Shown here: in pieces, positions 1 to 43,096 of the stretch
How positions within the stretch are numbered: the first letter of the stretch is position 1
How the letters are laid out: every line of letters starts with the position of its first letter
Sequence record: PQ850627.1
Strand: one strand, 5' to 3'
From: Escherichia phage SonjaBuckley_Bas74
DNA: 43,096 nucleotides
Translations under genes and position numbers: made by a program
The notes under the pieces: generated by a model
What the model saw: only the letters and a program-made list of their open reading frames with translations
Told to the model about the DNA's origin: nothing
Databases searched by the model: none

Positions 1-549
1 GTGCGCTCTGATGGTCAGACGCATATGCAAGGGGATTCTATGAAGCTGAAACTTAAGCAGCCATCGCCAGAGGTGGTACAAGCTGCACATGAAGAAGCTG
101 TTAGCGCAAACCGTCGCCGTAAACGACCGCGCGGTAAACAGAGCCTTTATCAATCATCCCGTAATTCTGCGGCATTGTGGGACCCGGACTACTGTGACGC
201 GTTAATCGAGTTCTTCGACCGCACGTCGTGGGAGCTTGTGCCAACGTCTAAGGGTGACGAACGCCCACTGATTCAGGATAAGCCGCCGTCACTGGCCCGC
301 TTCGCCTTACACATCGGCGTCACTATCCCTATTATTAAGCTTTGGCTGCGTGAGATTCCCGCATTTGCAGAAGCCTGGGAGACAGCACAGGCGCTGGAAG
401 AGGCATACTTCACTGAAACGGGGGCCGCGGGCATCTCTGCTACGTTTGCCGCCGCGAAACTGGGCCTGAATAAAACAGTTGTCGCCGAAGAAGTACGCGA
501 CGAGCCAATCAGCGAAGTAACAATTAAGGTGGTGTCCGGTGAACGTTAA
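1..549 (+). CDS. terminase small subunit (frame open from window edge; likely start ATG at 40)
   Basis: ATG at 40 preceded by AAGGGGA SD; basic N-terminal stretch RRRKRPRGK and HTH-like segment; immediately upstream of and overlapping the large terminase ORF. Confidence 0.6.
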   Translation: MRSDGQTHMQGDSMKLKLKQPSPEVVQAAHEEAVSANRRRKRPRGKQSLYQSSRNSAALWDPDYCDALIEFFDRTSWELVPTSKGDERPLIQDKPPSLARFALHIGVTIPIIKLWLREIPAFAEAWETAQALEEAYFTETGAAGISATFAAAKLGLNKTVVAEEVRDEPISEVTIKVVSGER

Positions 550-1810
550 TATCACGGCAACGGAGCCGCAAGGCGCGTTTCTCGGTATGCATTGCAAGTT
601 TCCGGCATTCGTAGCTGGCTTCGGTACGGGTAAATCCGAAGTTATGTGCAACTCTGCACTACTCGACAGCATGGAAGGTGGTAGCGATTCTATCATCGCC
701 ATGTATGAGCCGACTTATGACCTGGTGCGCCTCATCCTTGCACCGCGTATGGAAGAAAAGCTCACCGACTGGGGTATCCGGTACAAATACAACAAGTCTG
801 ACAACATAATCTATACGTCTTCCGGACAATTTGGGGATTTTGTTCTGCGTACACTTGATAATCCAGCACGAATCGTTGGCTACGAATCGTTTCGTGCGAA
901 AATCGACGAGTTGGACACCCTTAACATGGAGCACGCCGAGCACGCGTGGAACAAAGTCATCGCCCGTAACCGCCAGTTGCCGCGGACATATAAACCTATT
1001 ACACCGAAACCTGCTAATACCGTTTCCGTGTTCACTACCCCGGAAGGATTCCGTTTCGTACATGACCGCTGGGTAGTCAAAAAGAATCCAGGCTACGAGA
1101 TGATTCAGGCGTCCACCCTGTCTAACCCGTTCCTGCCAGAAGATTATGTGCAGTCGTTACGCGACACATACCCAGGTCAGTTGATTGACGCCTACATCAA
1201 CGGCGAGTTCGTCAACCTGACGGCGGGGACTGTCTATTACGCCTATGACCGCAGGAAAAACAGCAGCCGCGAAACAATAAAACCAGGCGAGACTCTGTAT
1301 ATCGGGCAGGACTTTAACGTAGGCCACATGGCTAGTACAGTTTACGTGCAACGTGGCAAAGTCTGGCATGCAGTCGCCGAGTTGGTGGATATGTTCGATA
1401 CGCCCGATGTGGTGAGAGCCGTAACAGAGCGCTGGAAAAGTAAGGGCCACTATATCGTTATGTACCCCGACGCAAGCGGTAAAAACCGTAAAAGTAACAA
1501 CGCCAGCACATCTGATATTGCCCAGTTACAGCAGGCCGGCTTCGAAGTGCGCGCTAAATCGACAAACCCACAGGTTAAAGACCGCGTAGCGGCGATGAAT
1601 AAGGCGCTTGAATCTGGTATGGTCATGATTAATGAGCAGGCTTGCCCGGTTACCGCGCGATGCCTGGAGCAACAGGCTTACGACAAGAACGGCGAACCGG
1701 ATAAATCGGGTGGTGTGGACCACCAGAATGACGGGACCACATATCCCATCGCGTATGAAATGCCGATTCGCAAACCAGTTATTAACGTCCCGGTGACTTT
1801 CGCACTTTAA
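539..1810 (+). CDS. terminase large subunit
   Basis: GTG start with AAGGTGG SD; Walker A-like GFGTGKS near N-terminus; sits between small terminase and portal. Confidence 0.7.
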   Translation: MNVNITATEPQGAFLGMHCKFPAFVAGFGTGKSEVMCNSALLDSMEGGSDSIIAMYEPTYDLVRLILAPRMEEKLTDWGIRYKYNKSDNIIYTSSGQFGDFVLRTLDNPARIVGYESFRAKIDELDTLNMEHAEHAWNKVIARNRQLPRTYKPITPKPANTVSVFTTPEGFRFVHDRWVVKKNPGYEMIQASTLSNPFLPEDYVQSLRDTYPGQLIDAYINGEFVNLTAGTVYYAYDRRKNSSRETIKPGETLYIGQDFNVGHMASTVYVQRGKVWHAVAELVDMFDTPDVVRAVTERWKSKGHYIVMYPDASGKNRKSNNASTSDIAQLQQAGFEVRAKSTNPQVKDRVAAMNKALESGMVMINEQACPVTARCLEQQAYDKNGEPDKSGGVDHQNDGTTYPIAYEMPIRKPVINVPVTFAL

Positions 1811-1822
1811 GAGGATTATTCA

Positions 1823-3304
1823 ATGTTAACTATGAACGGTCAGAATCAGGGTGTTAAGACAAAACACCGGGAATGGCTGCATCACTTCGATAAATGGCAG
1901 AAGGTGCGCCACGCGCTGGAAGGTGACCTTATCCGCTATCTGCGCAACGTCGGGAAGAACGAGCCTGACCCTACCTACGCGGCACAGCGCCAGGAAGAAT
2001 ATGAGAATGGTGCTATCTGCTACAACTTCACTAAACGTACCCTTGCGGGGATGGTGGGGTCGGTGATGCGCAAAGACCCTGAACAGATTATCCCGCCTGA
2101 ACTGGAGTACCTGTTACGTAATGCAGACGGTTCAGGTGTCGGTCTGTGGCAGCACGCGCAGGACACGCTGATGGAGATTGACTCGGTAGGCCGTGGCGGG
2201 TTGCTGGTGGACGCGCCGGAGACAGCTGCGGCAACGGCAGCCGAACAGAACGCGGGGTTACTAAACCCGGTCATTGCATTCTACACTGCTGAGAACATCA
2301 TCAACTGGCGACTGACCCGCATCGGCTCAGTGAACCGTGTGACGATGGTCGTGTTACGTGAGGTGTGGGAATACTCAGAACCAAGTGCAGAGTTCGAAAC
2401 AAAGTTCGGTGAACAATACCGCGTTCTCGATTTGATTGACGGGCGCTACCGCCAGCGAATCTATCGCTTCGATGCCGAAGGTGGCGCACAGGATGAAGTA
2501 ATCGAAATCTTCCCGGAACTCGGCGAACAGTTGCGCGGTAAAATCCCGTTCACGTTCATTGGCGCAAGCAACAACGACGCCACTATAGACGATGCGCCTT
2601 TACTGCCGTTAGCTGAGCTAAATATAGGACACTTCAGAAATTCGGCCGATGTGGAAGAGGCCAGCTTTATAGTAGGTCAACCGACACTGTTCATTGCCCC
2701 CGGCGAGAACATGAGCATGGAGCAGTGGAAAGAAGCCAACCCACACGGCATACGCATGGGGTCGCGTTCAGGCCACAACATCGGCTCCGGCGGAAATGCG
2801 TTTCTGGTTCAGGCGGCGGAAACTAACCTCGCCAAACAGAATATGCTGGATAAAGAGAATCAGGCCATCCAGATTGGCGCGCAGCTTATCACCCCGACGC
2901 AGCAAATCACCGCGGAATCGGCCCGCCTGCAACGCGGCGCCGACACGTCAGTCATGGCAACAATAGCACGTAATGTAAGCATGGCGTATACCGATGCGTT
3001 GCGCTGGGTTGCGGGTATGCTTGGGCTTAGTGAAGATACTGAGATTGAGTTCAAGCTGAATATGGAATTCTTCCTGCAACCTATGACAGCTCAGGACCGC
3101 GCTCAGTGGATGGCGGATATTAACGCTGGCCTGCTACCCGCCACCGCTTACTATGCTGCGTTGCGCAAGGCAGGTGTGACTGACTGGACAGATGAGGACA
3201 TTCAGAACGCTATTGAAGACGCACCTCTGCCGTTGGGTTCTGTTGCTCAGGTAGCGGGAGAGATTCCGCAGTCGGCGCAGCAACAGGACACCACTCAGCA
3301 GTAA
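1823..3304 (+). CDS. portal protein
   Basis: 493 aa ORF with AAGAGGA SD directly after terminase; followed by intrinsic terminator; size and position typical of portal. Confidence 0.65.
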   Translation: MLTMNGQNQGVKTKHREWLHHFDKWQKVRHALEGDLIRYLRNVGKNEPDPTYAAQRQEEYENGAICYNFTKRTLAGMVGSVMRKDPEQIIPPELEYLLRNADGSGVGLWQHAQDTLMEIDSVGRGGLLVDAPETAAATAAEQNAGLLNPVIAFYTAENIINWRLTRIGSVNRVTMVVLREVWEYSEPSAEFETKFGEQYRVLDLIDGRYRQRIYRFDAEGGAQDEVIEIFPELGEQLRGKIPFTFIGASNNDATIDDAPLLPLAELNIGHFRNSADVEEASFIVGQPTLFIAPGENMSMEQWKEANPHGIRMGSRSGHNIGSGGNAFLVQAAETNLAKQNMLDKENQAIQIGAQLITPTQQITAESARLQRGADTSVMATIARNVSMAYTDALRWVAGMLGLSEDTEIEFKLNMEFFLQPMTAQDRAQWMADINAGLLPATAYYAALRKAGVTDWTDEDIQNAIEDAPLPLGSVAQVAGEIPQSAQQQDTTQQ

Positions 3305-3314
3305 GTTCACCTAT

Positions 3315-3336
3315 AGCCCCGAAAGGGGCTTTCTTA
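3315..3336 (+). terminator. intrinsic terminator after portal gene
   Basis: AGCCCC-GAAA-GGGGCT hairpin followed by TTCTT. Confidence 0.6.
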
Positions 3337-3373
3337 TAGTATGCTATTAACTTTAGCGCCACAGGGTTGATCT

Positions 3374-4417
3374 ATGAGCTTACTTACATCCCTAATCAGC
3401 CATCAGATATGGCTGCAACGCACCGCATCCGGTGAGGTGAAAGACCTCACGCCGTTCATTCAGGAGATAAGGGATGAAATCAAACGGCAGGTGCTGTTAT
3501 TCGGTGACGACGGTCGCAGCACTGCGCGACTGAATAAACTGTTACGCGACCTGGAAGAAGCACTAACCGGTATTACGGGTGACTGGCAAACAAAGCTAAC
3601 AGACGACCTTAAGGAACTGGCGGCGTACGAGGCTGAGTGGAACGTAAAGACACTGACCGCCAACGTAGACGCGGAATTTGTTACGCCTACCGCTGAGCAG
3701 GTATGGGCCGCTGCCGAGTTTCAACCATTATCATTGAGCGACAAGCCCGTTGATTTCACCAAGCTGATGTCTGGATGGGGCGAAACGGAAGTAGCACGTC
3801 TTGTAACTGGAGTTAAGATGGGCTTTGTGCAAGGTCAAACCACACGGCAGATTGTTAAGAATGTTGTTGGCGCTGGTGGACTAGCCGACATCTCAGAACG
3901 TAACGCGACTACGGTAATCCGCACCGCGCTGTCCCACGTATCCAACGAGGCCCGTAACGAGACGTACCGCCAGAACGACGACATCATCGAGAAGTACGAG
4001 TGGGTGTCAACGCTTGACAGCCGCACCAGTACGATTTGCAGGGTCAGAGACGGGATGACGTGGGAAATTGGTAAGGGGCCGATGCCCCCAGCCCATCCGA
4101 ACTGCCGGTCGTGCACGGCTCCGGTAATCAGTTCCGAGTTCGACTTCCTCGATAAAGGCGCAAAACGCGCGGCTAAAGGCGCGGAAGGTGGCACTCAGGT
4201 AAGCGCAGACACCACTTACTACGAGTTCCTTAAACAACAACCGGCGTGGTTTCAGGACCAGGCGCTCGGCCCGGTGCGAGGTAAGATTTTCCGTAACAGC
4301 GGTATATCGCCGGAAGAGTTTCGCGTAATATCTGTAGATGGTTTCGGGAATCCGCTCACGCTTAAGCAGATGGCGGAACTCGATAAACGTGTTGCTGATT
4401 ATCTGAAAGGGGAATAA
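3374..4417 (+). CDS. head morphogenesis protein (SPP1 gp7 / Mu F-like)
   Basis: 347 aa; C-terminal HPNCRSC motif characteristic of this family; position after portal. Confidence 0.65.
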   Translation: MSLLTSLISHQIWLQRTASGEVKDLTPFIQEIRDEIKRQVLLFGDDGRSTARLNKLLRDLEEALTGITGDWQTKLTDDLKELAAYEAEWNVKTLTANVDAEFVTPTAEQVWAAAEFQPLSLSDKPVDFTKLMSGWGETEVARLVTGVKMGFVQGQTTRQIVKNVVGAGGLADISERNATTVIRTALSHVSNEARNETYRQNDDIIEKYEWVSTLDSRTSTICRVRDGMTWEIGKGPMPPAHPNCRSCTAPVISSEFDFLDKGAKRAAKGAEGGTQVSADTTYYEFLKQQPAWFQDQALGPVRGKIFRNSGISPEEFRVISVDGFGNPLTLKQMAELDKRVADYLKGE

Positions 4418-4878
4418 TGATGGGCTTTTTCAAAGTAACTGACGTACCGTCTCGTCGCGTAGTCCAGTACGCCCGCGTGTCTGGCTCTGGCGAGAACGTG
4501 GTATTTATTGAGGACGAAAGTGTACTCGGTACACCGGTAGATGATATGCCGTTTGCAGATAAAACCGGTATTGCGTTGCCCGCCGCCGGTATGCTTTATG
4601 AAATTCCGTATCTGGCGGACGCTGGCGACGTGTATTTCTCTGCGCAACCGCAGGACGCTGAACTGGCGGGCGGCAGCGCAACCATCACTGTCGAGGTTAA
4701 GGCAGGCAAAGCGCCGTATTCTCTGACCTGGTACAAAGACGGTAAGGAAGTGGTGAATGCGCCTGAGGAGGCTCTGTCTCTGACGGTTAATGCGGTCGGC
4801 GAATACTTCGTTAAAGTTACTGATGCCGATGGAGTAGAGGCGGTAAGCAAAGCGGCGAAGGTTACTAAGCCAGAATGA
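4417..4878 (+). CDS. Ig-like domain protein (putative head decoration/accessory)
   Basis: C-terminal segment TITVEV...APYSLTWYKDGKEV...GEYFVKVTD resembles an Ig-like beta-sandwich; start overlaps preceding stop (TAATG); paralogous to 7879-8223. Confidence 0.45.
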   Translation: MMGFFKVTDVPSRRVVQYARVSGSGENVVFIEDESVLGTPVDDMPFADKTGIALPAAGMLYEIPYLADAGDVYFSAQPQDAELAGGSATITVEVKAGKAPYSLTWYKDGKEVVNAPEEALSLTVNAVGEYFVKVTDADGVEAVSKAAKVTKPE

Positions 4879-4881
4879 TAA

Positions 4882-4908
4882 AAGGCCCCATTATGGGGCC
4901 TTAGTTTT
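4882..4908. terminator. bidirectional intrinsic terminator
   Basis: GGCCCCA-TTA-TGGGGCC hairpin with A-run upstream and T-run downstream, between convergent genes. Confidence 0.65.
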
Positions 4909-5111
4909 CAACGGAATCTTGTGTTTAAATCCTGCTCATGGACAACCCTCAGAACAGTGTCATAATCCCCGTATCTTCCAGGTTCAAATATATCTAATGC
5001 CTTGTAAGCAGACATTGCGTCAGGGAAAACCTGCAGAACCTTTTTAACCCGGCACAAGTCACCGTCGAACTCTTCATCGAACTCTTGAACTACTTCGCAA
5101 ATTGCATACAT
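4908..5111 (-). CDS. hypothetical protein (antisense moron, 67 aa)
   Basis: ATG with strong SD AGGAGGTG 5 nt upstream; own promoter TTGCAC-N17-TACTAT at 5139-5167; terminator hairpin at its 3' end. Confidence 0.55.
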   Translation of the reverse strand: MYAICEVVQEFDEEFDGDLCRVKKVLQVFPDAMSAYKALDIFEPGRYGDYDTVLRVVHEQDLNTRFR

Positions 5112-5138
5112 TTTTCACCTCCTGTTTAAGTTAACTGA

Positions 5139-5167
5139 ATAGTACCCTATTATATTGGGGTGTGCAA
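5139..5167 (-). promoter_or_regulatory. sigma70-type promoter TTGCAC-N17-TACTAT for moron 4908-5111
   Basis: Minus-strand reading TTGCACACCCCAATATAATAGGGTACTAT; 31-bp core identical to copy at 13662-13692. Confidence 0.55.
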
Positions 5168-5218
5168 ACTATTTATTTACGTATTCCAGTTATTCCTCGA
5201 ATTGTAAATGTTGGAATA

Positions 5219-5234
5219 AACTATTCGAATAGTT
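5219..5234. promoter_or_regulatory. perfect 16-bp palindrome AACTATTCGAATAGTT (operator candidate) abutting TTGACT
   Basis: Exact inverted repeat; half-site ACTATTC recurs in several promoters of this genome; overlaps a TTGACT -35-like hexamer at 5233-5238. Confidence 0.45.
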
Positions 5235-5441
5235 GACTTTTCACTAAAAATATGATAAGCTCCACCTGAGCTTGTGAAGTATGAACAAGCGACCGCGGCG
5301 CGGGCAGGTAACGGAGCGGGACGTAAGTCCTGAGTGCAGTTACGCTGACGCGTTCGGAAGGGCCATACTCTATTGCTTGTGTAAAAAGTAACTGGTTTAC
5401 TGAGATTACGCCGTTTCTATGTTTAAATGATAAGGACTAGC

Positions 5442-5468
5442 GCCCCGCTTTATGGCGGGGCTTTACTT
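5442..5468 (+). terminator. terminator-like hairpin upstream of spanin genes
   Basis: GCCCCGC-TTTATG-GCGGGGC followed by TTTACTT. Confidence 0.5.
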
Positions 5469-5485
5469 ATCGAGAAAGGGGAAAC

Positions 5486-5872
5486 ATGAATCTTAAAGCA
5501 ACTGTCGTAGCAGGAGCATGTTTCATCATCCTGGTTTACGCACACGGCATCTACCAGTATCGCAGCGGATGGAACGAAGGCCGGGCTAATCTCGTTTCGC
5601 AGCAACAGCAGAAAGCACAGGCTGAGTTAGCGAAGAAAACACAACGGCAGCAGCAGGATGAATCGAAGGCCGCCGCCGCTGACAACGAAGGCAAGACGAA
5701 ATCAGAGGTGATTACCCGTGAAGTCGTTAAGTACATTAAAACGCCTGGTCGCAGCGTGTGCACTTTTGACCCTGAGCGCGTGCAGCTCAAGTCCCGCGCC
5801 GTCGCCAACGCCAATTCCATCCCCGGATACGACGATGATGCAGCCGCCGTGCAAACTGGCGCAGCCAAGTAG
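5486..5872 (+). CDS. i-spanin (Rz-like)
   Basis: N-terminal TMD ATVVAGACFIILVYAHGIY followed by Q/K/E-rich coiled-coil region; contains an overlapping +1 frame lipoprotein ORF. Confidence 0.65.
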   Translation: MNLKATVVAGACFIILVYAHGIYQYRSGWNEGRANLVSQQQQKAQAELAKKTQRQQQDESKAAAADNEGKTKSEVITREVVKYIKTPGRSVCTFDPERVQLKSRAVANANSIPGYDDDAAAVQTGAAK

Positions 5873-5981
5873 CGACGCTGATGAGGATTTGGCCGTCGAC
5901 GTTCAGAATGCTGAATGCGTACGGCAACTGAGACTGAAAGTGTTCATGTTGCAGGATTACGTGAGGAATATTCTGGAATAG
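5718..5981 (+). CDS. o-spanin (Rz1-like outer membrane lipoprotein)
   Basis: +1 frame relative to the i-spanin, overlapping its 3' half; signal peptide with lipobox LSAC; proline-rich mature part SSSPAPSPTPIPSP. Confidence 0.65.
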   Translation: MKSLSTLKRLVAACALLTLSACSSSPAPSPTPIPSPDTTMMQPPCKLAQPSSDADEDLAVDVQNAECVRQLRLKVFMLQDYVRNILE

Positions 5982-6036
5982 TTGCCTTGCATGTTGGAAT
6001 AATTTATTCTTGACATGTAAATCCGGGTGGCCCGGA
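5965..6036 (+). promoter_or_regulatory. phased GGAATA repeats, TTGACA hexamer and TCCGGG-N3-CCCGGA palindrome upstream of scaffold gene (candidate late promoter / activator site)
   Basis: GGAATA at 5965, 5975 and 5996; 12-mer ATGTTGGAATAA shared with 5208-5219; TTGACA at 6010-6015 without a recognisable -10. Confidence 0.35.
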
Positions 6037-6063
6037 TTCCAACGTCCAGGGGACATACTGACT

Positions 6064-6765
6064 ATGAATCGTTTTTTACGTTATCCGTTCCAGGAAGAAG
6101 CTGGAGCAGAAGATAAAGCTGGTGGCGGTGACGCTCCTAAAATGTTCACCGCTGAAGAAGTTCAGGCGCTGATTGAGAAAGAAGTTGCCGGGCTTAAGGC
6201 TAATCAGGAAGCATTGTTGGCGGAGAAGAAAGAAGCCGCTCGCAAAGCAAAAGAGGCCGAAGAAGAACGGCAGCGCGCGCACCAGGAGGCGTTAAAAGCC
6301 GCTGGTAAGATGGATGAGTTCGAAAAGACGATTCGTAGCCAGTACGACCCTGTGTTAGCCGAGAAAGACGGTCGCATCTCCAGAATGGCAGAGCGTATCC
6401 TCGGCAGCGAACGTAAAGCGGTGCTAGGCTCTTTCGCGGGTGACTTTATTACCCCAGAAGCAGTGGACATTCTTGCGCCGTTCGTTAAGACTGAGTTCGA
6501 AGGCGATGATGTGGTTACTAAGTTTGTTGGTGCAGACGGTAACGTAATCACGACTGACCCGGAACAGTTCCGCAAATACCTGCGCGAACACAAGGCGTTT
6601 TCGCATTTGATCAAAGCAAATGCAGCTTCCGGCGGCGGGGCTTCCGGTAGCAAAGGCGGCGGGGCCGCACCAGCGTTTAAAGACATGAGTGAAGCAGAGC
6701 GTTTAGCCCTGTATAAATCGAACCCTGCCGAATTTGAACGGCAACTTAAAGCCCTGAGGAAATAA
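6064..6765 (+). CDS. scaffold protein (putative)
   Basis: ATG at 6064 with AGGGGA SD (ORF track extends to 6010 without SD); K/E/A-rich coiled-coil-like sequence; directly upstream of major capsid gene. Confidence 0.55.
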   Translation: MNRFLRYPFQEEAGAEDKAGGGDAPKMFTAEEVQALIEKEVAGLKANQEALLAEKKEAARKAKEAEEERQRAHQEALKAAGKMDEFEKTIRSQYDPVLAEKDGRISRMAERILGSERKAVLGSFAGDFITPEAVDILAPFVKTEFEGDDVVTKFVGADGNVITTDPEQFRKYLREHKAFSHLIKANAASGGGASGSKGGGAAPAFKDMSEAERLALYKSNPAEFERQLKALRK

Positions 6766-6767
6766 TA

Positions 6768-7817
6768 ATGGCAATTACCACTATCGGCGATATCGTAACT
6801 GGCAACATCCCGGTCCTGGCGTCTTATATGACCGAGGACCCGGTAGAAAAAACCGCGTTCTTCCAGTCTGGTATTCTGACCCCGACCCCGTACGCTGCCG
6901 AGATTGCCCGCGGCCCGTCCAACGTCGCTAATATTCCTTTCTGGAAAGCGATTGATACCTCTATCGAGCCGAACTACTCGAACGACGTATACCAGGACAT
7001 CGCCACCCCGCGTAACGTGCAGACCGGCGAGATGATGGCGCGCGTTGCGTACCTGAACGAAGGTTTCGGTCAGGCGGATTTGACCGTTGAACTGACCAGC
7101 CAGAACCCGCTGCAATCCGTAGCGTCACGTCTGGATAACTTCTGGCAGCGTCAGGCACAACGCCGTCTGATTGCTACCGCGCTCGGGCTGTACAATGACA
7201 ACGTAGCCGCTACCGACGCATACCACGAGCAGAATGACATGGTAATCGACGTGTCTGCTACTCTGGGCTTCGATGCGGGCGCGTTCATCGACGCTACCCA
7301 GACTATGGGCGATGCTCTGATGGGCAACGGCGGTGAAGTGCTGGGGGCTATCGCGATGCATAGCTTCGTTTATGCGCAGGCACGTAAGCAGCAGCTTATC
7401 GACTTCATCCGTGACGCGGACAACAACACCATGTTCGCCACCTACCAGGGCTACCGCGTGATTGTTGACGACAGCATGACCGTAGTCGGCACTGACCAGA
7501 CCCGTAAGTTCATCTCTATTATCTTCGGTAACGGCGCTATCGGTTACGGTGAAGGTTCTCCGTCCAACCCGCTGGAATACGAGCGCGAAGCGTCTCGCGG
7601 TAATGGTGGTGGCGTTGAAACCCTGTGGACCCGTAAGACCTGGTTGCTGCACCCACTGGGCTACAGCTTCACCAGCGCAGTAATCACCGGCAACGGCACC
7701 GAGACTACCTCGCGCTCTGCTTCCTGGCAGGACCTGGCGAACGCCTCCAACTGGAACCGTGTTGTTGAACGTAAGCACGTACCGATCGCCTTCCTGGTAA
7801 CTGGTGTCAGGTCTTAA
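6768..7817 (+). CDS. major capsid protein
   Basis: 349 aa ORF with GAGGAA SD immediately after scaffold gene and followed by strong intrinsic terminator; size and position typical. Confidence 0.7.
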   Translation: MAITTIGDIVTGNIPVLASYMTEDPVEKTAFFQSGILTPTPYAAEIARGPSNVANIPFWKAIDTSIEPNYSNDVYQDIATPRNVQTGEMMARVAYLNEGFGQADLTVELTSQNPLQSVASRLDNFWQRQAQRRLIATALGLYNDNVAATDAYHEQNDMVIDVSATLGFDAGAFIDATQTMGDALMGNGGEVLGAIAMHSFVYAQARKQQLIDFIRDADNNTMFATYQGYRVIVDDSMTVVGTDQTRKFISIIFGNGAIGYGEGSPSNPLEYEREASRGNGGGVETLWTRKTWLLHPLGYSFTSAVITGNGTETTSRSASWQDLANASNWNRVVERKHVPIAFLVTGVRS

Positions 7818-18766: not shown

Positions 18767-19128
18767 ATATTAACGACTACACGGGCATACCTTACGACTT
18801 TCGCAAGCGCAATTGCTGGCATCACGTTCGCATTGTACGGGCCGATGCCGGGTTAGAAACCCCGGCGTTCGACGTTACAAGCCCAACGGCGATTAACGAA
18901 GCGTTCGACGAAGGCCATCGTGACACGAAGGGGCTTACAAAAATTGATAAGCCTGAAAACTTCTGTGCGGTTCTTATGGGGTATCGCCGTGGCGGTCGTA
19001 TCGTGTGGCACGCGGGAGTTTACTTCGACGGGATGGTGAGTCATTGCGAGCTTGCGTCCCGTCAGGTACGGCTTGACAGGCTGGCGGATCTCAGAGACAC
19101 GTACACGGAGATTGAATTTTGGCGATAA
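18763..19128 (+). CDS. tail assembly protein with NlpC/P60-like Cys-His signature (putative)
   Basis: 121 aa; NCWHHV and later His residues reminiscent of NlpC/P60 catalytic signature seen in lambda K-like proteins; ATGA coupling to upstream gene. Confidence 0.4.
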   Translation: MNINDYTGIPYDFRKRNCWHHVRIVRADAGLETPAFDVTSPTAINEAFDEGHRDTKGLTKIDKPENFCAVLMGYRRGGRIVWHAGVYFDGMVSHCELASRQVRLDRLADLRDTYTEIEFWR

Positions 19129-39758: not shown

Positions 39759-40067
39759 TTGGATAAATTTACTGAAACAGTGACAGGCTGGCTTCTGGCA
39801 GCCGCACTAGCTGGTGGGGTAATCGGACTACGACAACATAAGTCCGCTATTTCCGGCCCTATCGACGGATTCTGCTTTATTGCAACTGGCTTCACTTGCG
39901 CCGTATTTGGCGCGCCTCTCGCCGCTCAATGGTTCGGTATTACCGGAGAGCGCGAGATAGCTGGCCTCGGATTCATCATCGCAATTCTCTGGATGCCCAT
40001 CTATTCCCGTCTCTCCGGTATCGTCGCCGGAGAATACATCGCACGTCGAGGAGGCACAGATGAATGA
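39759..40067 (+). CDS. holin (three predicted TMDs)
   Basis: Apparent TTG start 6 nt after GGAGGA SD; three hydrophobic helices and charged C-terminus; directly upstream of endolysin cassette. Confidence 0.55.
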   Translation: MDKFTETVTGWLLAAALAGGVIGLRQHKSAISGPIDGFCFIATGFTCAVFGAPLAAQWFGITGEREIAGLGFIIAILWMPIYSRLSGIVAGEYIARRGGTDE

Positions 40068-40332
40068 ATTATTCTGGTTCGGCGGTATGCTGGCAATCGG
40101 AGGCACATCGCTGTTTAATGTATATCACCCCAGCGCGGATGACGGATTATTTGGCCGTGTGCTATATATCCTGACCGCTATTGTCTGCGCCGCAGGATGT
40201 ATCCACCTGTTACAGGGCAGCATGTCTCCGACGCTGCCTGAGACATTAATCACATTAGTTGCGCTGCGCCAGATTCGTCAGGCGTGGCTGTCATACGGAG
40301 GACATAAGCGTGTCTCGAAATATTTCAGATAA
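40060..40332 (+). CDS. membrane protein, second holin/antiholin-like component (putative)
   Basis: 90 aa with two hydrophobic helices; overlaps holin stop; between holin and endolysin. Confidence 0.45.
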   Translation: MNELFWFGGMLAIGGTSLFNVYHPSADDGLFGRVLYILTAIVCAAGCIHLLQGSMSPTLPETLITLVALRQIRQAWLSYGGHKRVSKYFR

Positions 40333-40422
40333 TGGACTTACCGCAGATAAGCTGCGCGAGGTTTTACACTACGACCCCGATACCGGAGTTTTCGCGAACC
40401 ATAAATTACGGGAAGGTGCTTT

Positions 40423-40908
40423 ATGAGAAACATTAGCAACAATGGCATCAAATTCACCGCCGCGTTCGAGGGATTCCGCGGAACTGCGTATCGTGCTACG
40501 CCAAATGAGAAGTACCTGACTATTGGGTACGGTCATTATGGGCCAGACGTAACGCCAGGCAAGACCATCACCCCGGGACAAGGCCTCCTGTTACTGAATC
40601 GTGATATGGCTAAGGCTGTAGCTGCGGTTGACGCAGCAGCACACCATTCATTGACACAGGCACAGTTCGATGCAGTGTGCGACCTGGTATACAACGCAGG
40701 TGCTGGTGTGATTGCTGCTACTACCGGCACGGGTAAGGCACTGCGTTCTGGTGATATTGCAACGCTGCGGGCTAAGCTGACACTGTTCATCAACCAGAAC
40801 GGCAGACCGTTACTTGGTCTGCGCCGCCGTACTGCCGGTCGTCTGGCGCTGTTCGACGGTAAACCGTGGCAAGAGGCAGAGGCTATCGGGCGCGCGGTGA
40901 AAGGTTGA
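40423..40908 (+). CDS. endolysin, T4-type lysozyme (GH24-like)
   Basis: FEGFRGTAY...TIGYGH and QFDAVCDLVYNAG match the catalytic region pattern of phage lysozymes; followed by strong intrinsic terminator. Confidence 0.75.
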   Translation: MRNISNNGIKFTAAFEGFRGTAYRATPNEKYLTIGYGHYGPDVTPGKTITPGQGLLLLNRDMAKAVAAVDAAAHHSLTQAQFDAVCDLVYNAGAGVIAATTGTGKALRSGDIATLRAKLTLFINQNGRPLLGLRRRTAGRLALFDGKPWQEAEAIGRAVKG

Positions 40909-40974
40909 CACCTGAGACTAATCCGACGATACTTAAATCACCTCCTGTTCCATACCTCTGCTCTCCAGTTTTAT

Positions 40975-41003
40975 CCCGGCCCTGACCCAGCCGGGATTTT
41001 TTT
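40975..41003 (+). terminator. intrinsic terminator after endolysin
   Basis: CCCGGC-N9-GCCGGG followed by ATTTTTTT. Confidence 0.7.
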
Positions 41004-41025
41004 ATCTATTTTCTGCAATGACTAG

Positions 41026-41054
41026 TTGACTATTACCTACGACCCTATTATATT
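41026..41054 (+). promoter_or_regulatory. promoter TTGACT-N17-TATATA after endolysin terminator
   Basis: TTGACTATTACCTACGACCCTATTATATA followed by leader CAACGAGAACGGAG and ATG at 41088. Confidence 0.45.
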
Positions 41055-41087
41055 TACTCCATCGACAACGAGAACGGAGTAGAGAAG

Positions 41088-41336
41088 ATGAGTAACGTAC
41101 AGACAATCGCAATAACCGAGGAACTTGAAGCCAAATGTATCGCATGGACTATGGGTAATGACCCGGTTGCTATGCGTAAATTTCCAATGAAAATCACAGA
41201 TACCGAAGCATTCAAAGACGCACAACTGATGGCGCGTATCGCCGTTAGTAACCTGAGCCGCAATATCCCTGCGGATGCGTTCTGGTTCGCGGCTATGCAG
41301 ACACTGAAAGCAGCTTATGCAGGAGAGAAGAAATGA
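41088..41336 (+). CDS. hypothetical protein (82 aa)
   Basis: ATG with GGAGTAGAGAAG leader downstream of TTGACT-N17-TATATA promoter. Confidence 0.5.
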   Translation: MSNVQTIAITEELEAKCIAWTMGNDPVAMRKFPMKITDTEAFKDAQLMARIAVSNLSRNIPADAFWFAAMQTLKAAYAGEKK

Positions 41337-41530
41337 AAGTTAAAGCCGCTAAAATTCTCTGGTTAGCCGCCCTTGACTATGTCACAGAGGGTAAAGTGTA
41401 TGATGTATACAACCCGACAGCTACTGGTTTCGGTTATATAGACTCCGACGACGACTGCCATATTTTCATAGACTTTGGTAACGATGACGGTGATGGTTTC
41501 CACGGCGTTAAATGGGAGGTTGTAGAATGA
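41333..41530 (+). CDS. hypothetical acidic protein (65 aa)
   Basis: ATGA coupling to upstream gene. Confidence 0.45.
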   Translation: MKVKAAKILWLAALDYVTEGKVYDVYNPTATGFGYIDSDDDCHIFIDFGNDDGDGFHGVKWEVVE

Positions 41531-41688
41531 GCGAACAAGGTCAAGTAAGCCAACCATTACGAGTAGGCCGTAAGGTGAGTCACACCCCGTTCCCGACACG
41601 CGAGGAACTGATGAAACGTAACAGTTTCCCTGGGCCGGACAAGAACAAGTATCTCAACCGCATGTGGGGAGAGCGTAAAAATGACTGA
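41527..41688 (+). CDS. hypothetical protein (53 aa)
   Basis: ATGA coupling; uninterrupted frame; under ORF-track cutoff. Confidence 0.35.
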   Translation: MSEQGQVSQPLRVGRKVSHTPFPTREELMKRNSFPGPDKNKYLNRMWGERKND

Positions 41689-41866
41689 CCGTGAATATGA
41701 AAAGATGATGGTAGAGGCCGTTAACGGCGGCGTAGACATTAGCCACGTGATGTGCGTCCTGAATAATAAAATCGCGGTAGCCGAGCAAATGGTGGAGTCG
41801 CTTTATGAGGCGCGCCGCGAACTGATTAACCGCTTCAACCTGAACAAAGGTGACACCAATGCATAA
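41681..41866 (+). CDS. hypothetical protein (61 aa)
   Basis: ATG overlapping upstream gene by 8 nt. Confidence 0.45.
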   Translation: MTDREYEKMMVEAVNGGVDISHVMCVLNNKIAVAEQMVESLYEARRELINRFNLNKGDTNA

Positions 41867-42158
41867 AATCACAATTGCATCGCTCGAGCGCCGTATTATG
41901 GTGCTTGAGTCGGAGAAACAGACGTTAGGCGGGCAACTGTCAATTAACGGTGAGTTTCAACTGGAGGCGTATAAAGAACTTCTAGAGGCGTTTAAAGAGC
42001 TACAAGCCATCGCGTCTGACATAGAAAATATGATTGGATTGTTGCAATCCGGGGAGTGGGCCGAACACTGCACTAAATCGGCGTTAGGAAAACGGCTTGA
42101 GACGGAGATTACTGACATGCTGAGTTGTCTTGTTGAGGCGCCAGATGAGCACGCCTGA
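41859..42158 (+). CDS. hypothetical coiled-coil protein (99 aa)
   Basis: ATG at 41859 with AAAGGTGA SD (ORF-track GTG at 41850). Confidence 0.45.
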   Translation: MHKITIASLERRIMVLESEKQTLGGQLSINGEFQLEAYKELLEAFKELQAIASDIENMIGLLQSGEWAEHCTKSALGKRLETEITDMLSCLVEAPDEHA

Positions 42159-42327
42159 GCCGGTAGTTATCGATGGCGTCCTGTGGAAACCTTACTCGGT
42201 TAACCACATCGACGCCGATGGGAAGAAGTTCAGTTTCTACATTTTTGCGATTAGCCGTGAGCACGCTGCGTGTGTAGTAGACGATATACGAGAAACGGCG
42301 TGGCTTGGCGATGAGATAGTGGGGTGA
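42145..42327 (+). CDS. hypothetical protein (60 aa)
   Basis: ATG overlapping upstream gene end; ORF-track start 42130 lacks an SD. Confidence 0.4.
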   Translation: MSTPEPVVIDGVLWKPYSVNHIDADGKKFSFYIFAISREHAACVVDDIRETAWLGDEIVG

Positions 42328-42331
42328 GAGC

Positions 42332-42415
42332 ATGAGTCTTGAGGTTGTTATAAGTCTGGTTGGTATTAGTTACTTCATTGGGCTATTGGTCGGTTTTCTG
42401 TGGGGTAGATACTAA
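42332..42415 (+). CDS. hydrophobic micropeptide (27 aa, single TMD)
   Basis: ATG after GGGGTGAGAG; sequence MSLEVVISLVGISYFIGLLVGFLWGRY; stop overlaps next start (TAATG). Confidence 0.3.
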   Translation: MSLEVVISLVGISYFIGLLVGFLWGRY

Positions 42416-42585
42416 TGTTCAGCGACATCAACGCAGCAATCGAAGAAGCAATCTGGCGCCGTTACAACGGCGAGCAACAGCGTCACTTCTGCCTGGTGCA
42501 ACGTGGTAACATGGTCGCCGTGGTGCAGGACCGCGATAACAAATATCCGAATGCGATGTGGACAACGAGGAATTTCTTAGGATGA
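42415..42585 (+). CDS. hypothetical protein (56 aa)
   Basis: Translationally coupled on both sides; uninterrupted frame. Confidence 0.35.
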   Translation: MFSDINAAIEEAIWRRYNGEQQRHFCLVQRGNMVAVVQDRDNKYPNAMWTTRNFLG

Positions 42586-42818
42586 TTACCAGCATTCCTA
42601 ACCTGATTAAAGAATTTGGTACGATGGCGGAGACATGCCGACAAACCGGTATCAACGAAATGACGATTGCTAAGTACAGTAAAGACGTTGATTGTGAGCG
42701 CCACGTAATTTATAACAATCGTCTGATGACGCACGTTAAGACTAGCCCGGTGTTATTCACGCGCCGTGGTATCACTAAAACTGAGCAACGTATTGCTAAA
42801 GAGGAGAGTGGAGAATGA
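42582..42818 (+). CDS. hypothetical protein (78 aa; alternative start 42558)
   Basis: ATGA coupling at 42582; same frame as ORF-track start 42558. Confidence 0.4.
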   Translation: MITSIPNLIKEFGTMAETCRQTGINEMTIAKYSKDVDCERHVIYNNRLMTHVKTSPVLFTRRGITKTEQRIAKEESGE

Positions 42819-43000
42819 AAAAGTTAACTATCTACTGGAAAACAGGGGCTACGTCAGAACTCGATGTTTTCAGCGTAACGCAGTGTGAAAAGTTCTGGTA
42901 TGCCGAAACATTCAACGGTGAAGTGAGAATACCAATCGCACTGGTATACGGCGGCGATATAACAGAATACCAATCGCACTGGTATACGGCGGCGATATAA
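42815..43000 (+). CDS. hypothetical protein whose 3' end runs through a 38-bp tandem duplication
   Basis: ATGA coupling; stop codon lies in the second repeat copy; followed by intrinsic terminator. Confidence 0.4.
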   Translation: MKKLTIYWKTGATSELDVFSVTQCEKFWYAETFNGEVRIPIALVYGGDITEYQSHWYTAAI

Positions 43001-43001
43001 C
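42926..43001 (+). repeat. perfect 38-bp tandem duplication (2 copies)
   Basis: AGAATACCAATCGCACTGGTATACGGCGGCGATATAAC at 42926-42963 and again at 42964-43001, followed by partial third start AGAATAA. Confidence 0.9.
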
Positions 43002-43018
43002 AGAATAACCAACCCACA

Positions 43019-43043
43019 AGCCCTCTACGGAGGGCTTTTCTGT
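43019..43043 (+). terminator. intrinsic terminator at right end of window
   Basis: AGCCCTC-TACG-GAGGGCT followed by TTTCTGT. Confidence 0.6.
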
Positions 43044-43096
43044 ACATCCCGCCCAATCCCCTTATATAATCCATTTAGACGCGTAGGGCGCGTCTG

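Follow-up and report, generated by a model that had tools for sequence, protein, structure and literature searches.

Does the predicted spanin pair of Escherichia phage SonjaBuckley_Bas74 lie among head genes as a recently acquired cassette, or is this its ordinary place, and what does the 12-mer that flanks it on both sides represent? We addressed these questions in the complete, circularly permuted Kagunavirus genome (subfamily Guernseyvirinae; PQ850627.1), whose 43,096 nt constitute the window throughout this text and whose positions 4400-6800 share 99.6-99.9% identity with phages vB-Eco-KMB35 and Bas71. The explanation that we favour, with a probability of roughly 90%, is that a two-component spanin of the "Jersey" family occupies an ancestral slot in the head block and that the 12-mer is the edge of a palindrome flanking it.

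The spanin gene pair

The original prediction described an i-spanin and an overlapping, +1-frame lipoprotein o-spanin (LSA/C), and both open reading frames were found, with the sorting signals as described:

5486..5872, + strand: i-spanin gene, 128 aa, ATG start
5718..5981, + strand: o-spanin gene, 87 aa, GTG start, +1 frame

The two genes overlap by 155 nt, and the offset between their starts (5718 - 5486 = 232 = 3 x 77 + 1) places the o-spanin, preceded by a ribosome-binding site GAGG at 5705-5708, in the +1 frame. The i-spanin has a single hydrophobic N-terminal 19-mer (residues ~5-23, mean Kyte-Doolittle 1.85) and would adopt an N-in topology with a C-out periplasmic domain, where its periplasmic cysteine is Cys92. 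A single-sequence AlphaFold2 model yielded a continuous helix for residues 3-63 (pLDDT 75-92) and pLDDT values below 50 in the C-terminal half; for the near-identical K1G and K1ind i-spanins, an apparently single coiled-coil segment has been predicted at residues 33-66 (Kongari et al. 2018, PMC6139136, supplement). The o-spanin reads MKSLSTLKRLVAACALLTLSA/CSSSP..., with the lipobox LTLSA/C, Cys22 and Ser at +2. Its mature part comprises 66 aa with a proline-rich linker as well as Cys45 and Cys67, and it is the sole plausible lipobox reading frame in the whole window.

Database comparisons matched the i-spanin to phrog_2536 over residues 1-128 (E = 4.8e-57) and the o-spanin to both phrog_1267 (E = 3e-21) and phrog_5672 (E = 2e-30), and the pair also matched other Rz-like and Rz1-like families weakly yet specifically. 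Neither protein reached a curated Pfam cut-off (best DUF2514, 16.8 bits versus 26) or that of the NCBIfam spanin models (P2_Rz1, 17.3 versus 27). The "Jersey" family of overlapped spanins, a bioinformatic assignment, includes Jersey, SETP3, K1G, K1H and K1ind1-3; in K1G, K1H and K1ind1-3, the two spanins are 128 and 87 aa long, their genes overlap by 155 nt and the signal reads MKSLSTLKRLAAACALLTLSA/CSS, and the pair of K1G lies at 4662-5158 (Kongari et al. 2018, PMC6139136). Cys45 and Cys67 of our o-spanin are shared with this family as well. Only 4 of 128 residues distinguish our i-spanin from that of K1ind1 in the supplement of the same study (~97% identity). Judged by sequence, the two reading frames are predicted to be a genuine two-component spanin pair and another member of the "Jersey" family, with few substitutions and at the same genome position.

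Lysis genes elsewhere in the genome

The holin, a second membrane protein and the endolysin are located at 39759-40908 and followed by a terminator, exactly as had been proposed:

39759..40067, + strand: holin, 102 aa (phrog_2359, E = 9e-30)
40060..40332, + strand: second holin-family membrane protein, 90 aa (phrog_2508, E = 7e-33)
40423..40908, + strand: endolysin, soluble lysozyme-type, 161 aa (Pfam Phage_lysozyme, E = 8e-27)
40973..41003, + strand: intrinsic terminator past the lysis cassette, stem 40973-40980/40990-40997 followed by seven T

The endolysin has no N-terminal membrane segment (hydropathy maximum 1.15), and the terminator begins 65 nt past its stop codon (-13.8 kcal/mol, z = -3.35). 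A spanin is indeed missing from this side: our search of reading frames found no lipobox ORF near the endolysin and no other spanin candidate in the genome, and the arrangement is conserved in relatives. A 39-aa reading frame after the endolysin (40866-40985), considered as a hidden spanin, has neither a hydrophobic segment nor a lipobox.

The separation from the holin-endolysin cassette, given earlier as ~34 kb, is correct in one direction (33.8 kb), but this figure is set by the cut of the map. The end and start of the genome are contiguous in other phage records, which indicates circular permutation, and the Bas71 record is circular. On the circular map, the spanins lie ~7.7 kb downstream of the endolysin, along a path on which all genes are on the + strand.

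We also weighed whether the two reading frames might encode small membrane proteins of head assembly rather than of lysis, a role that their location among head genes and their scores below the Pfam and NCBIfam spanin cut-offs would fit. This appears exceedingly improbable, given the full two-component signature of a membrane-anchored helical protein with a +1-frame lipoprotein, periplasmic cysteines and a proline-rich linker, the specificity of the weak Rz-like and Rz1-like matches, and the lack of any alternative spanin candidate in a genome equipped with holins and an endolysin.

A fixed slot among relatives

The pair lies between the head morphogenesis and scaffold genes, in agreement with the original prediction, within the following neighbourhood:

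3374-4417: head morphogenesis gene
4417-4878: Hoc-like gene
6064..6765, + strand: head scaffolding protein gene, downstream neighbour (phrog_206, E = 2.6e-55)
6768-7817: major capsid gene

To compare this location across related genomes, we used 48 IMG/VR loci together with phiEap-2, Ijeoma and Hafnia TS33, plus Dhillonvirus JLBYU60. The cassette occupies the same slot in all 51 Guernseyvirinae relatives examined, and the spanins of JLBYU60 likewise have the head morphogenesis gene on one side and the scaffold gene on the other; with the i-spanin as query, tblastn matched 661 phage records. The o-spanin frame, whose loss in relatives would have spoken against the pair, is retained with its signal peptide and cysteine in 50 of 50 loci examined (with the lipobox LLNG/C or LLSG/C in the Jerseyvirus type), and Cys45 and Cys67 are conserved in relatives.

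The head-block slot is hence a fixed layout of Guernseyvirinae and Dhillonvirus, for which it is ancestral, and not peculiar to SonjaBuckley_Bas74. Both the pair and its separate position were predicted correctly, but they had been documented before and are ordinary. Kagunavirus phage papers (Golestan, fBC-Eco01) already record spanins apart from the holin-endolysin genes, as ORF7/8 versus ORF66-68 in the case of Golestan, and coordinates for the K1G, K1H and K1ind pairs are available (Kongari et al. 2018, PMC6139136).

As a side observation, many GenBank records, including that of Bas71, and also PHROG 5672 contain a truncated 48-aa o-spanin that lacks the lipoprotein signal.

Putative transcription signals and a probable structured leader RNA

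The non-coding sequence on either side of the spanins contains several putative signals:

4882..4902, no single strand: bidirectional terminator hairpin AAGGCCCCA-TTA-TGGGGCCTT (terminator scan; fold -16.3 kcal/mol, z = -3.41)
5233..5261, + strand: upstream promoter-like site, TTGACT-17 nt-TAAGCT, extended -10 TG at 5253-5254 (read from sequence)
5266..5368, + strand: leader core with P1 5270-5290, long irregular hairpin P2-P4 5294-5357 and motif CGGAAGGG at 5355-5362 (RNAalifold)
5429..5471, + strand: two-part hairpin just upstream of the i-spanin ribosome-binding site, stems 5429-5434/5466-5471 and 5442-5449/5454-5461
5982..6010, + strand: scaffold promoter-like site, TTGCCT 5982-5987, 17 nt, TATTCT 6005-6010
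6020..6038, + strand: hairpin AAUCCGGG-UGG-CCCGGAUU at the predicted 5' end of the scaffold/capsid mRNA

The first of these ends the terminase-portal-head morphogenesis-Hoc transcription unit, and Jerseyvirus and other loci likewise have a terminator at this place after Hoc. The upstream promoter-like site scores below the threshold of a simple promoter scan, and its -35 and TGnTA(A/C)GCT elements are conserved across genera; it would act as a promoter with transcription starting at ~5268. Ahead of the scaffold gene, TTGCCT-17-TATTCT is conserved together with a palindrome (see below) in Kagunavirus and Jerseyvirus, and both sites are putative promoters at the level of consensus, with a start predicted near 6017 for the second. 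The hairpin that follows shows a compensatory variant in Jerseyvirus (ACACCGGG/CCCGGUGU) and further variants in phiEap-2 (GCCGGG/CCCGGC), TS33 (GAGUGGGG/CCCUACUC) and Dhillonvirus JLBYU60 (AAGCGGG/CCCGCUU).

Just upstream of the spanins, we additionally observed a conserved, apparently structured RNA leader of ~200 nt (5266-5471). Covariance model R1, built from Kagunavirus-type seeds only, detects Jerseyvirus-type leaders at 33-39 bits, with 95% of cells paired, compared to 25-45% in slid controls, and 15 of 29 pairs changed on both sides. The two-part hairpin, consisting of a lower stem and an upper GC stem (-23 kcal/mol, z = -3.49), is conserved with compensatory changes: in covariance model R2, both stems are 98-100% paired and 4 pairs are changed on both sides. 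Its tail reads UUUACUUAU in Kagunavirus and UUAGCGUAU in Jerseyvirus, is terminator-like in Kagunavirus only, and has bases that pair in a lower stem. An outer helix between UUUCU and the i-spanin ribosome-binding site was rejected, with 71% pairing and no covariation.

Searches of Rfam 15 returned no match at the gathering score for the whole window and, for positions 5100-6100 (E <= 10), nothing better than E = 1.3; no second copy of the leader was found in the window. Using blastn, only sequences at least 95% identical and the operator region of phiEap-2 and Ijeoma were recovered, and the Jerseyvirus-type leader was not reached. A loose gapped DNA pattern run against IMG/VR gave the RNA in 2 of 80 among the matches listed, both from contigs already counted, and thus no evidence for the leader outside Guernseyvirinae among those matches. 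JLBYU60 contains no R1 or R2 match, and a literature search found no transcriptome or sRNA data on Guernseyvirinae. From the covariation across Guernseyvirinae, we consider it quite probable that the leader structure exists. That it has a role in regulation is conjectural, with attenuation, processive antitermination of the HK022 put type, and mRNA processing or stabilisation as candidate modes.

Within the leader RNA, some records annotate a spurious 36-aa protein. We rejected the corresponding reading frame (5281-5391) as a genuine gene: truncations or frameshifts affect it in six loci (L002, L008, L017, L023, L024, L027), its ATG context was not found in L013 (GTG there) or L028, and it has no counterpart in Jerseyvirus-type, phiEap-2 and TS33 loci.

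The flanking 12-mer and a palindrome

The 12-mer ATGTTGGAATAA was confirmed on both sides of the cassette as exact copies at 5208-5219 and 5991-6002, with no other site in the window even when one mismatch is permitted; the pair can be extended to 19 nt at 89% identity. By an estimate (N^2/2/4^12), chance alone would yield ~55 exact same-strand 12-mer pairs in 43 kb. Chance does not account for the retention of both copies in ~30 relatives across the genus Kagunavirus, the check that had been suggested for the repeat, or for the location of both within a palindrome conserved across genera. Each copy falls within a cluster of half-sites:

5182..5232, + strand: half-site cluster 1, operator-like, GGAATA/TATTCC half-sites; holds 12-mer copy 1 (5208-5219)
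5965..6010, + strand: half-site cluster 2, GGAATATTC, GGAATAG and GGAATAA-T-TTATTC; holds 12-mer copy 2 (5991-6002)

The half-sites of cluster 1 are TATTCC-AG-TTATTCC, GGAATA-AAC-TATTC and GAATAG, and TATTCCAGTTATTCC together with the inverted repeat GGAATA-N3-TATTC is conserved in Kagunavirus, Jerseyvirus and phiEap-2. Cluster 2 overlaps the promoter-like TTGCCT-17 nt-TATTCT. The palindrome GGAATAA-N-TTATTCC (palindrome-bearing sequence GGAATAATTTATTCC) is present to either side of the cassette, within promoter-like regions, in 4 of 4 lineages examined (Kagunavirus, Jerseyvirus, phiEap-2 and TS33), as a perfect 7-1-7 in the last two. Relative to the upstream and the scaffold promoter-like site, its centre lies at ~-48 and ~-14, respectively. 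Jerseyvirus, phiEap-2 and TS33 lack the 12-mer even though they possess the cassette, and the repeat reads as the Kagunavirus-specific edge or extension of the palindrome.

An exact repeat on each side could also indicate that the cassette is a recent mobile or moron-type module and that the 12-mers mark where it was inserted (as a target duplication or as recombination sites). The Hoc-to-leader region is variable, with a minus-strand gene at 4908-5111 in 3 of 48 loci, and spanin alleles have been exchanged in three loci (L037, L034, L048), of which L037 has a different allele between flanks of 98-99% identity. Such swaps are, however, accounted for by homologous recombination of the ordinary kind within conserved flanking sequence, and the cassette has no integrase, transposase or homing endonuclease next to it. 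With the i-spanin 278 nt downstream of copy 1, and with the leader RNA and a promoter-like site in between, the 12-mer does not delimit the spanin ORFs. Because no relative lacks the cassette (51 of 51, and the same place in Dhillonvirus) and Jerseyvirus, phiEap-2 and TS33 carry it without the 12-mer, we can discern no mobile-element boundary. A recent insertion is largely refuted by these observations and very improbable. The proposal that the 12-mer marks a module boundary survives in one respect, in that recombination joints do fall in the conserved non-coding flanks (L037), and fails with regard to a mobile-element or insertion boundary.

Alternatively, the 12-mer and the GGAATA/TATTCC motifs may be functionless, consisting of AT-rich promoter sequence kept by kinship, with the 12-nt identity arising by chance. 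The number of 12-mer pairs expected would allow this, and conservation within the genus is weak evidence because Kagunavirus genomes are 90-99% identical. Furthermore, Jerseyvirus does not conserve the five-base extension of the palindrome, ATGTT, and the total of GGAATA/TATTCC hexamers in the window is ordinary (26 versus 20.5 in shuffles). The palindromic core, on the other hand, is found at both sites in four lineages across which the spanin proteins share only 46-68% identity with the SonjaBuckley_Bas74 pair. GGAATA-N(1-4)-TATTC has exactly two sites in the window, both flanking the cassette, compared to 0.10 expected, and the only two clusters of three half-sites in the window are the same two. 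The arms are kept whereas the bases at the centre differ (AAC, CTT, A, T), which is the pattern of a protein-binding site. We therefore regard a lack of function as unlikely, albeit not negligibly so, and the palindrome most likely as a candidate binding site of a dimeric regulator. To our knowledge, it has no convincing fit to the host Fur, ArgR, CpxR or CRP boxes.

Proposed action and implications

For the "Jersey"-family pair in its ancestral slot, the likely steps of action follow from what is established on spanins in general (lambda Rz/Rz1; Kongari et al. 2018, PMC6139136). The N-terminal helix would anchor the i-spanin in the inner membrane, and the o-spanin would be lipidated at Cys22 and sorted to the outer membrane by virtue of Ser at +2. 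Joined via their C-termini, the two proteins would bridge the periplasm, with their cysteines forming intermolecular disulfides. These complexes would build up harmlessly in late infection, restrained by peptidoglycan, until the holins (39759-40332) trigger and the endolysin (40423-40908) degrades the wall, upon which the spanins would fuse or disrupt the outer membrane. As the timing of lysis is set by the holin alone, the spanin genes would need late expression only, not adjacency to the holin. They would head a second late transcription unit, before scaffold and capsid, in the order post-Hoc terminator, promoter-like site 5233-5261, leader of ~218 nt, spanins, promoter-like site 5982-6010, scaffold and capsid.

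It is conceivable, if on balance doubtful, that the undescribed cis-acting leader RNA and the two flanking palindromic operators form a switch setting transcription into the spanin-scaffold-capsid late unit. If this is true, spanin dosage would be linked to head-gene expression.

That lysis genes need no clustering is textbook knowledge from T4 and T7, and tables covering this phage group exist already; our analysis is of practical use for annotation and engineering (o-spanin truncation, spurious 36-aa protein). Kagunaviruses are in use as small synthetic-biology chassis, and in module swaps the "head module" is predicted to include essential lysis genes and conserved regulatory RNA and DNA elements as well. 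The leader RNA and the palindromes provide leads into late-gene control in a common, little-studied phage subfamily.

Comparison with known spanin systems

Lambda Rz/Rz1 is the prototype two-component spanin, with which the SonjaBuckley_Bas74 pair shares no sequence similarity that we could detect; neither Pfam Rz nor Pfam Rz1 is matched. Whereas lambda Rz1 is embedded, the o-spanin gene described here overlaps the i-spanin gene and runs beyond its end, and, unlike in lambda, the pair is not next to the holin and endolysin genes. T7 18.5/18.7 are located between the DNA-packaging genes 18 and 19. In T4, the spanins pseT.3/pseT.2 lie away from both holin t and endolysin e (Kongari et al. 2018, PMC6139136, Fig. 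8 legend). T4 (separated architecture) and T7 (embedded) are thus precedents for spanins unlinked to other lysis genes, with sequences unrelated to the SonjaBuckley_Bas74 pair and other neighbour genes. Dhillonvirus (JLBYU60 gp05/gp06; HK578-like phages) differs in that its pair directly overlaps the end of the head morphogenesis gene, with no Hoc-like gene, leader RNA or GGAATAA palindrome; the pair is nevertheless homologous, belongs to the same Kongari family, occupies the same slot between head morphogenesis and scaffold genes, and shares the hairpin upstream of the scaffold gene.

Spanin genes within the head-gene block

Our analysis centers on two overlapping genes:

5486-5872, + strand: i-spanin, ORF of 128 aa
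5718-5981, + strand: o-spanin, ORF of 87 aa with a GTG start, in the +1 frame, overlapping the i-spanin gene by 155 nt

The original prediction of an i-spanin with an overlapping +1-frame, lipobox-containing o-spanin holds: both ORFs are present, and the two proteins match PHROG families annotated as "Rz-like spanin" (phrog_2536, E = 4.8e-57; phrog_1267, 3e-21; phrog_5672, 2e-30), with neither reaching the Pfam or NCBIfam cut-offs. The i-spanin, which differs from that of K1ind1 at 4 of 128 positions, has a single, N-terminal hydrophobic segment; in a single-sequence AlphaFold2 model residues 3-63 form one helix (pLDDT 75-92), with the C-terminal half at low confidence. The o-spanin (MKSLSTLKRLVAACALLTLSA followed by CSSSPAPSPTPIPSP...) carries the lipobox Cys22 with Ser at +2, a Pro-rich linker, Cys45, and Cys67. 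When the whole window was scanned in six frames for small ORFs combining a signal peptide with a lipobox, the hits were the o-spanin and a 39-aa ORF (18920-19039), alongside which no i-spanin-like membrane partner was identified. We consider the spanin interpretation of the two ORFs sound.

In many GenBank records, including Bas71, the o-spanin is called as a 48-aa ORF (5835-5981; 5836-5982 in the related locus L052), which lacks the signal peptide and lipobox Cys because its start is placed at an internal ATG. The correct start is the GTG at 5718, preceded by a GAGG ribosome-binding site (5705-5708). PHROG 5672 (47 positions) appears to have been built from truncated calls.

We compared the region with 48 IMG/VR loci (i-spanin identity 63-98%). 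All 48 have the pair immediately before the scaffold and major capsid genes, and in every locus whose contig includes the upstream flank it follows the Hoc-like head-decoration gene. Enterobacter phage phiEap-2, Salmonella phage Ijeoma, and Hafnia phage TS33 share this placement. The predicted location within the head-gene block is borne out. Outside the subfamily, Dhillonvirus JLBYU60 has a homologous pair directly after a head morphogenesis gene and before the scaffold gene, and a tblastn search with the i-spanin matched 661 phage records. The +1 frame, signal peptide, and Cys of the o-spanin are intact in 50/50 loci examined. With the frame conserved in relatives and no spanin beside the endolysin, these two early grounds for rejecting the prediction fall away.

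The lysis cassette and the circular map

The lysis cassette comprises two holin-family proteins (39759-40067 and 40060-40332) and a soluble lysozyme-type endolysin without a membrane segment (40423-40908), with a strong terminator 65 nt past the endolysin stop. The sole ORF after the endolysin (40866-40985) has neither lipobox nor hydrophobic segment, confirming the claim that holin, second membrane protein, and endolysin are followed by a terminator with no spanin beside them.

An HNH homing endonuclease has left a ~110-nt remnant (40310-40426, + strand) between the second holin and endolysin genes. Its ORF, VSRNISDNGLTADKLREVLHYDPDTGVF..., opens with a duplicated endolysin N-terminus (compare MRNISNNGI at 40423), and 40328-40392 matches the 5' ends of HNH genes that Salmonella phages STP03, pink, and S102 carry at this site. 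Bas73 alone has the arrangement in full.

Positions 4400-6800 are 99.9% identical to vB-Eco-KMB35 and 99.6% to LotteLoewe_Bas71, and match phage records (n = 482) mainly of Jerseyvirus and Kagunavirus phages of Salmonella and Escherichia. The Bas71 record is circular and begins at the terminase gene; over the first ~7.8 kb its gene coordinates agree to ≤1 nt with the window. When the two ends of the window (250 bases each) are joined, the resulting sequence is contiguous in other phage records (e.g., phage 590B; 100% coverage, 99.4% identity); the window is therefore a complete Kagunavirus genome, circularly permuted and cut at the terminase gene. The predicted separation of ~34 kb between spanins and lysis cassette is therefore correct on the linear map (33.8 kb to the holin) but an artefact of that map: on the circle, the path from the endolysin stop downstream to the spanin cassette measures ~7.7 kb (40908-43096 plus 1-5486). 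Along this shorter path all genes annotated in the near-identical Bas71 record are on the + strand. At least two terminators interrupt it (after the endolysin and after Hoc at 4882-4902), and the spanin and holin-endolysin genes therefore probably belong to separate transcription units.

Near the junction, a 38-nt tandem duplication (42926-43012; 2.3 copies, 97% match) lies within a small ORF (42815-43000); as 38 is not divisible by 3, the duplication alters the C-terminus of the ORF. The 590B span matching the 500-nt junction query is 462 nt in two aligned pieces, 38 nt shorter, consistent with one fewer repeat copy.

Conserved flanks and allele exchange

Three further features flank the spanin genes:

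4908-5111, - strand: ORF of 67 aa (phrog_27256), between Hoc and the leader
5266-5471, + strand: structured RNA leader of ~200 nt, between a promoter-like site and the i-spanin start
6020-6038, + strand: hairpin xxCGGG-NGG-CCCGxx, inferred 5' end of the scaffold mRNA

The 12-mer reported on both sides of the spanin cassette occurs exactly twice in the window (5208-5219 and 5991-6002, at -278 and +505 from the i-spanin start). One such pair is not unusual in itself, as an estimated ~55 exact 12-mer pairs are expected by chance in 43 kb. Both copies are kept in nearly all Kagunavirus-type loci, and neither is found in Jerseyvirus-type loci. In the alignments, the conserved upstream order is TATTCCAGTTATTCC, GGAATA-N3-TATTC, a -35-like T(T/A)GACT, a 17-nt spacer, and an extended -10 TGnTA(A/C)GCT; downstream, TTGCCT, a 17-nt spacer, and TATTCT are conserved, with GGAATAA-T-TTATTC occupying spacer and -10. 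The upstream site is a perfect 7-1-7 palindrome in phiEap-2 and TS33 (GGAATAAATTATTCC and GGAATAATTTATTCC). GGAATA-N(1-4)-TATTC is confined to these two sites in the window (0.10 expected), as are clusters of three GGAATA/TATTCC hexamers. With the promoter-like sites inferred from consensus and conservation only, we read the 12-mer as the putative edge, specific to this genus, of an operator-like palindrome that lies in both promoter-like regions.

The suggestion that the 12-mer marks a module boundary fails in the sense of a mobile element, because no relative is missing the cassette. It survives in another sense, as the conserved non-coding flanks behave as recombination linkers between which spanin alleles are exchanged. 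In locus L037 (4001-4586), leader and downstream spacer are Kagunavirus-type (99% and 98% identical to the window) around a divergent allele with 74% identity over half of the o-spanin part. This is the one locus with a "separated" pair (118 aa and 81 aa, 14-nt overlap), a variant described for FSL_SP-031 by Kongari et al. 2018 (PMC6139136). Three further loci (L034, L035, and L048) are Kagunavirus-type in the leader but have become Jerseyvirus-type by the 3' half of the cassette.

Relatives differ in how long the Hoc-to-leader gap is (~350 to 920 nt), which marks it as a hotspot for accessory genes; the 67-aa ORF occurs in 3/48 loci (L014, L015, and L026). A 13-mer, ACCCTATTATATT, is present both in this Hoc-spanin intergenic region (5144-5156) and at 41043-41055, where it forms the -10 region of a promoter-like TTGACT-17-TATATT after the lysis-cassette terminator. 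Within the first copy, the minus strand reads a perfect TATAAT (5149-5154) that could serve the minus-strand gene.

The scaffold hairpin lies directly after the conserved promoter-like site and ~25 nt upstream of the scaffold start codon. Its pairing survives at least four different lower-stem sequences, Dhillonvirus included, and it also precedes the scaffold genes of L050, L053, and L054. Two speculative roles are stabilising the 5' end and serving as an operator for autoregulation by the scaffold.

A structured RNA leader

Conservation of the 218 nt from the upstream promoter-like site to the i-spanin start exceeds that of the spanin genes: L034 has a leader at 96% identity (i-spanin protein, 77%) and L048 one at 97% (67%). 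From 5' to 3', the leader folds into a first hairpin, a second that is long and irregular, the conserved motif CGGAAGGG (5355-5362; CGAGAGGC in TS33), and a two-part hairpin before the ribosome-binding site. A covariance model of the leader core (R1), seeded with Kagunavirus-type sequences only, detects the ~70%-identical Jerseyvirus-type leaders at 33-39 bits. In an alignment fitted to the covariance model, which favours structure, 95% of cells are paired and 15/29 pairs changed on both sides, against 25-45% pairing in slid controls. In the 3' hairpin, pairing is 98-100% in both stems, and 4 pairs have changed on both sides. Compensatory changes keep the helices across Kagunavirus and Jerseyvirus. 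A helix over the i-spanin ribosome-binding site was also proposed and found no support in the alignment.

The leaders of phiEap-2 and TS33 are related but divergent, with analogous hairpins by eye; R1 scored only 14 bits on phiEap-2, and a model of the two-part hairpin (R2) matched neither. Rfam gave no match to the leader of the window. Among candidate roles, the leader may serve as a 5' UTR for stabilisation or processing, as an attenuator, or as a put-like antitermination RNA.

A 36-aa "hypothetical protein" annotated here (5281-5391, + strand; Bas71_0007 and other records) is probably spurious. The ORF is truncated or frameshifted in 6 related loci, the ATG context is missing in 2 more, and Jerseyvirus-type, phiEap-2, and TS33 loci have no counterpart. 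RNA structure is kept across its bases.

Comparison with known spanin systems

By analogy with established spanin biology, the i-spanin would sit in the inner and the o-spanin in the outer membrane, linking across the periplasm and building up during late infection. They would act only once the holin has triggered and the endolysin has cleared the peptidoglycan. With timing set by the holin, late expression would be all that the spanin genes need, presumably provided by their place at the head of a late unit that also makes scaffold and capsid.

Only the leader RNA and the palindromes may repay further work. The spanin arrangement itself is already known. Kongari et al. 2018 (PMC6139136) placed Jersey, SETP3, K1G, K1H, K1ind1-3, and others in a "Jersey" family of overlapped spanins; the supplement records proteins of 128 aa and 87 aa, genes overlapping by 155 nt, the signal MKSLSTLKRLAAACALLTLSA followed by CSS, and coordinates near the left genome end (e.g., K1G 4662-5158). 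In the paper on phage Golestan, the spanins are ORF7/8, against ORF66-68 for holins and endolysin, and the T4 spanins are likewise unlinked to the T4 holin and endolysin (PMC6139136). The arrangement in SonjaBuckley_Bas74 is a documented, conserved layout of a large phage group.
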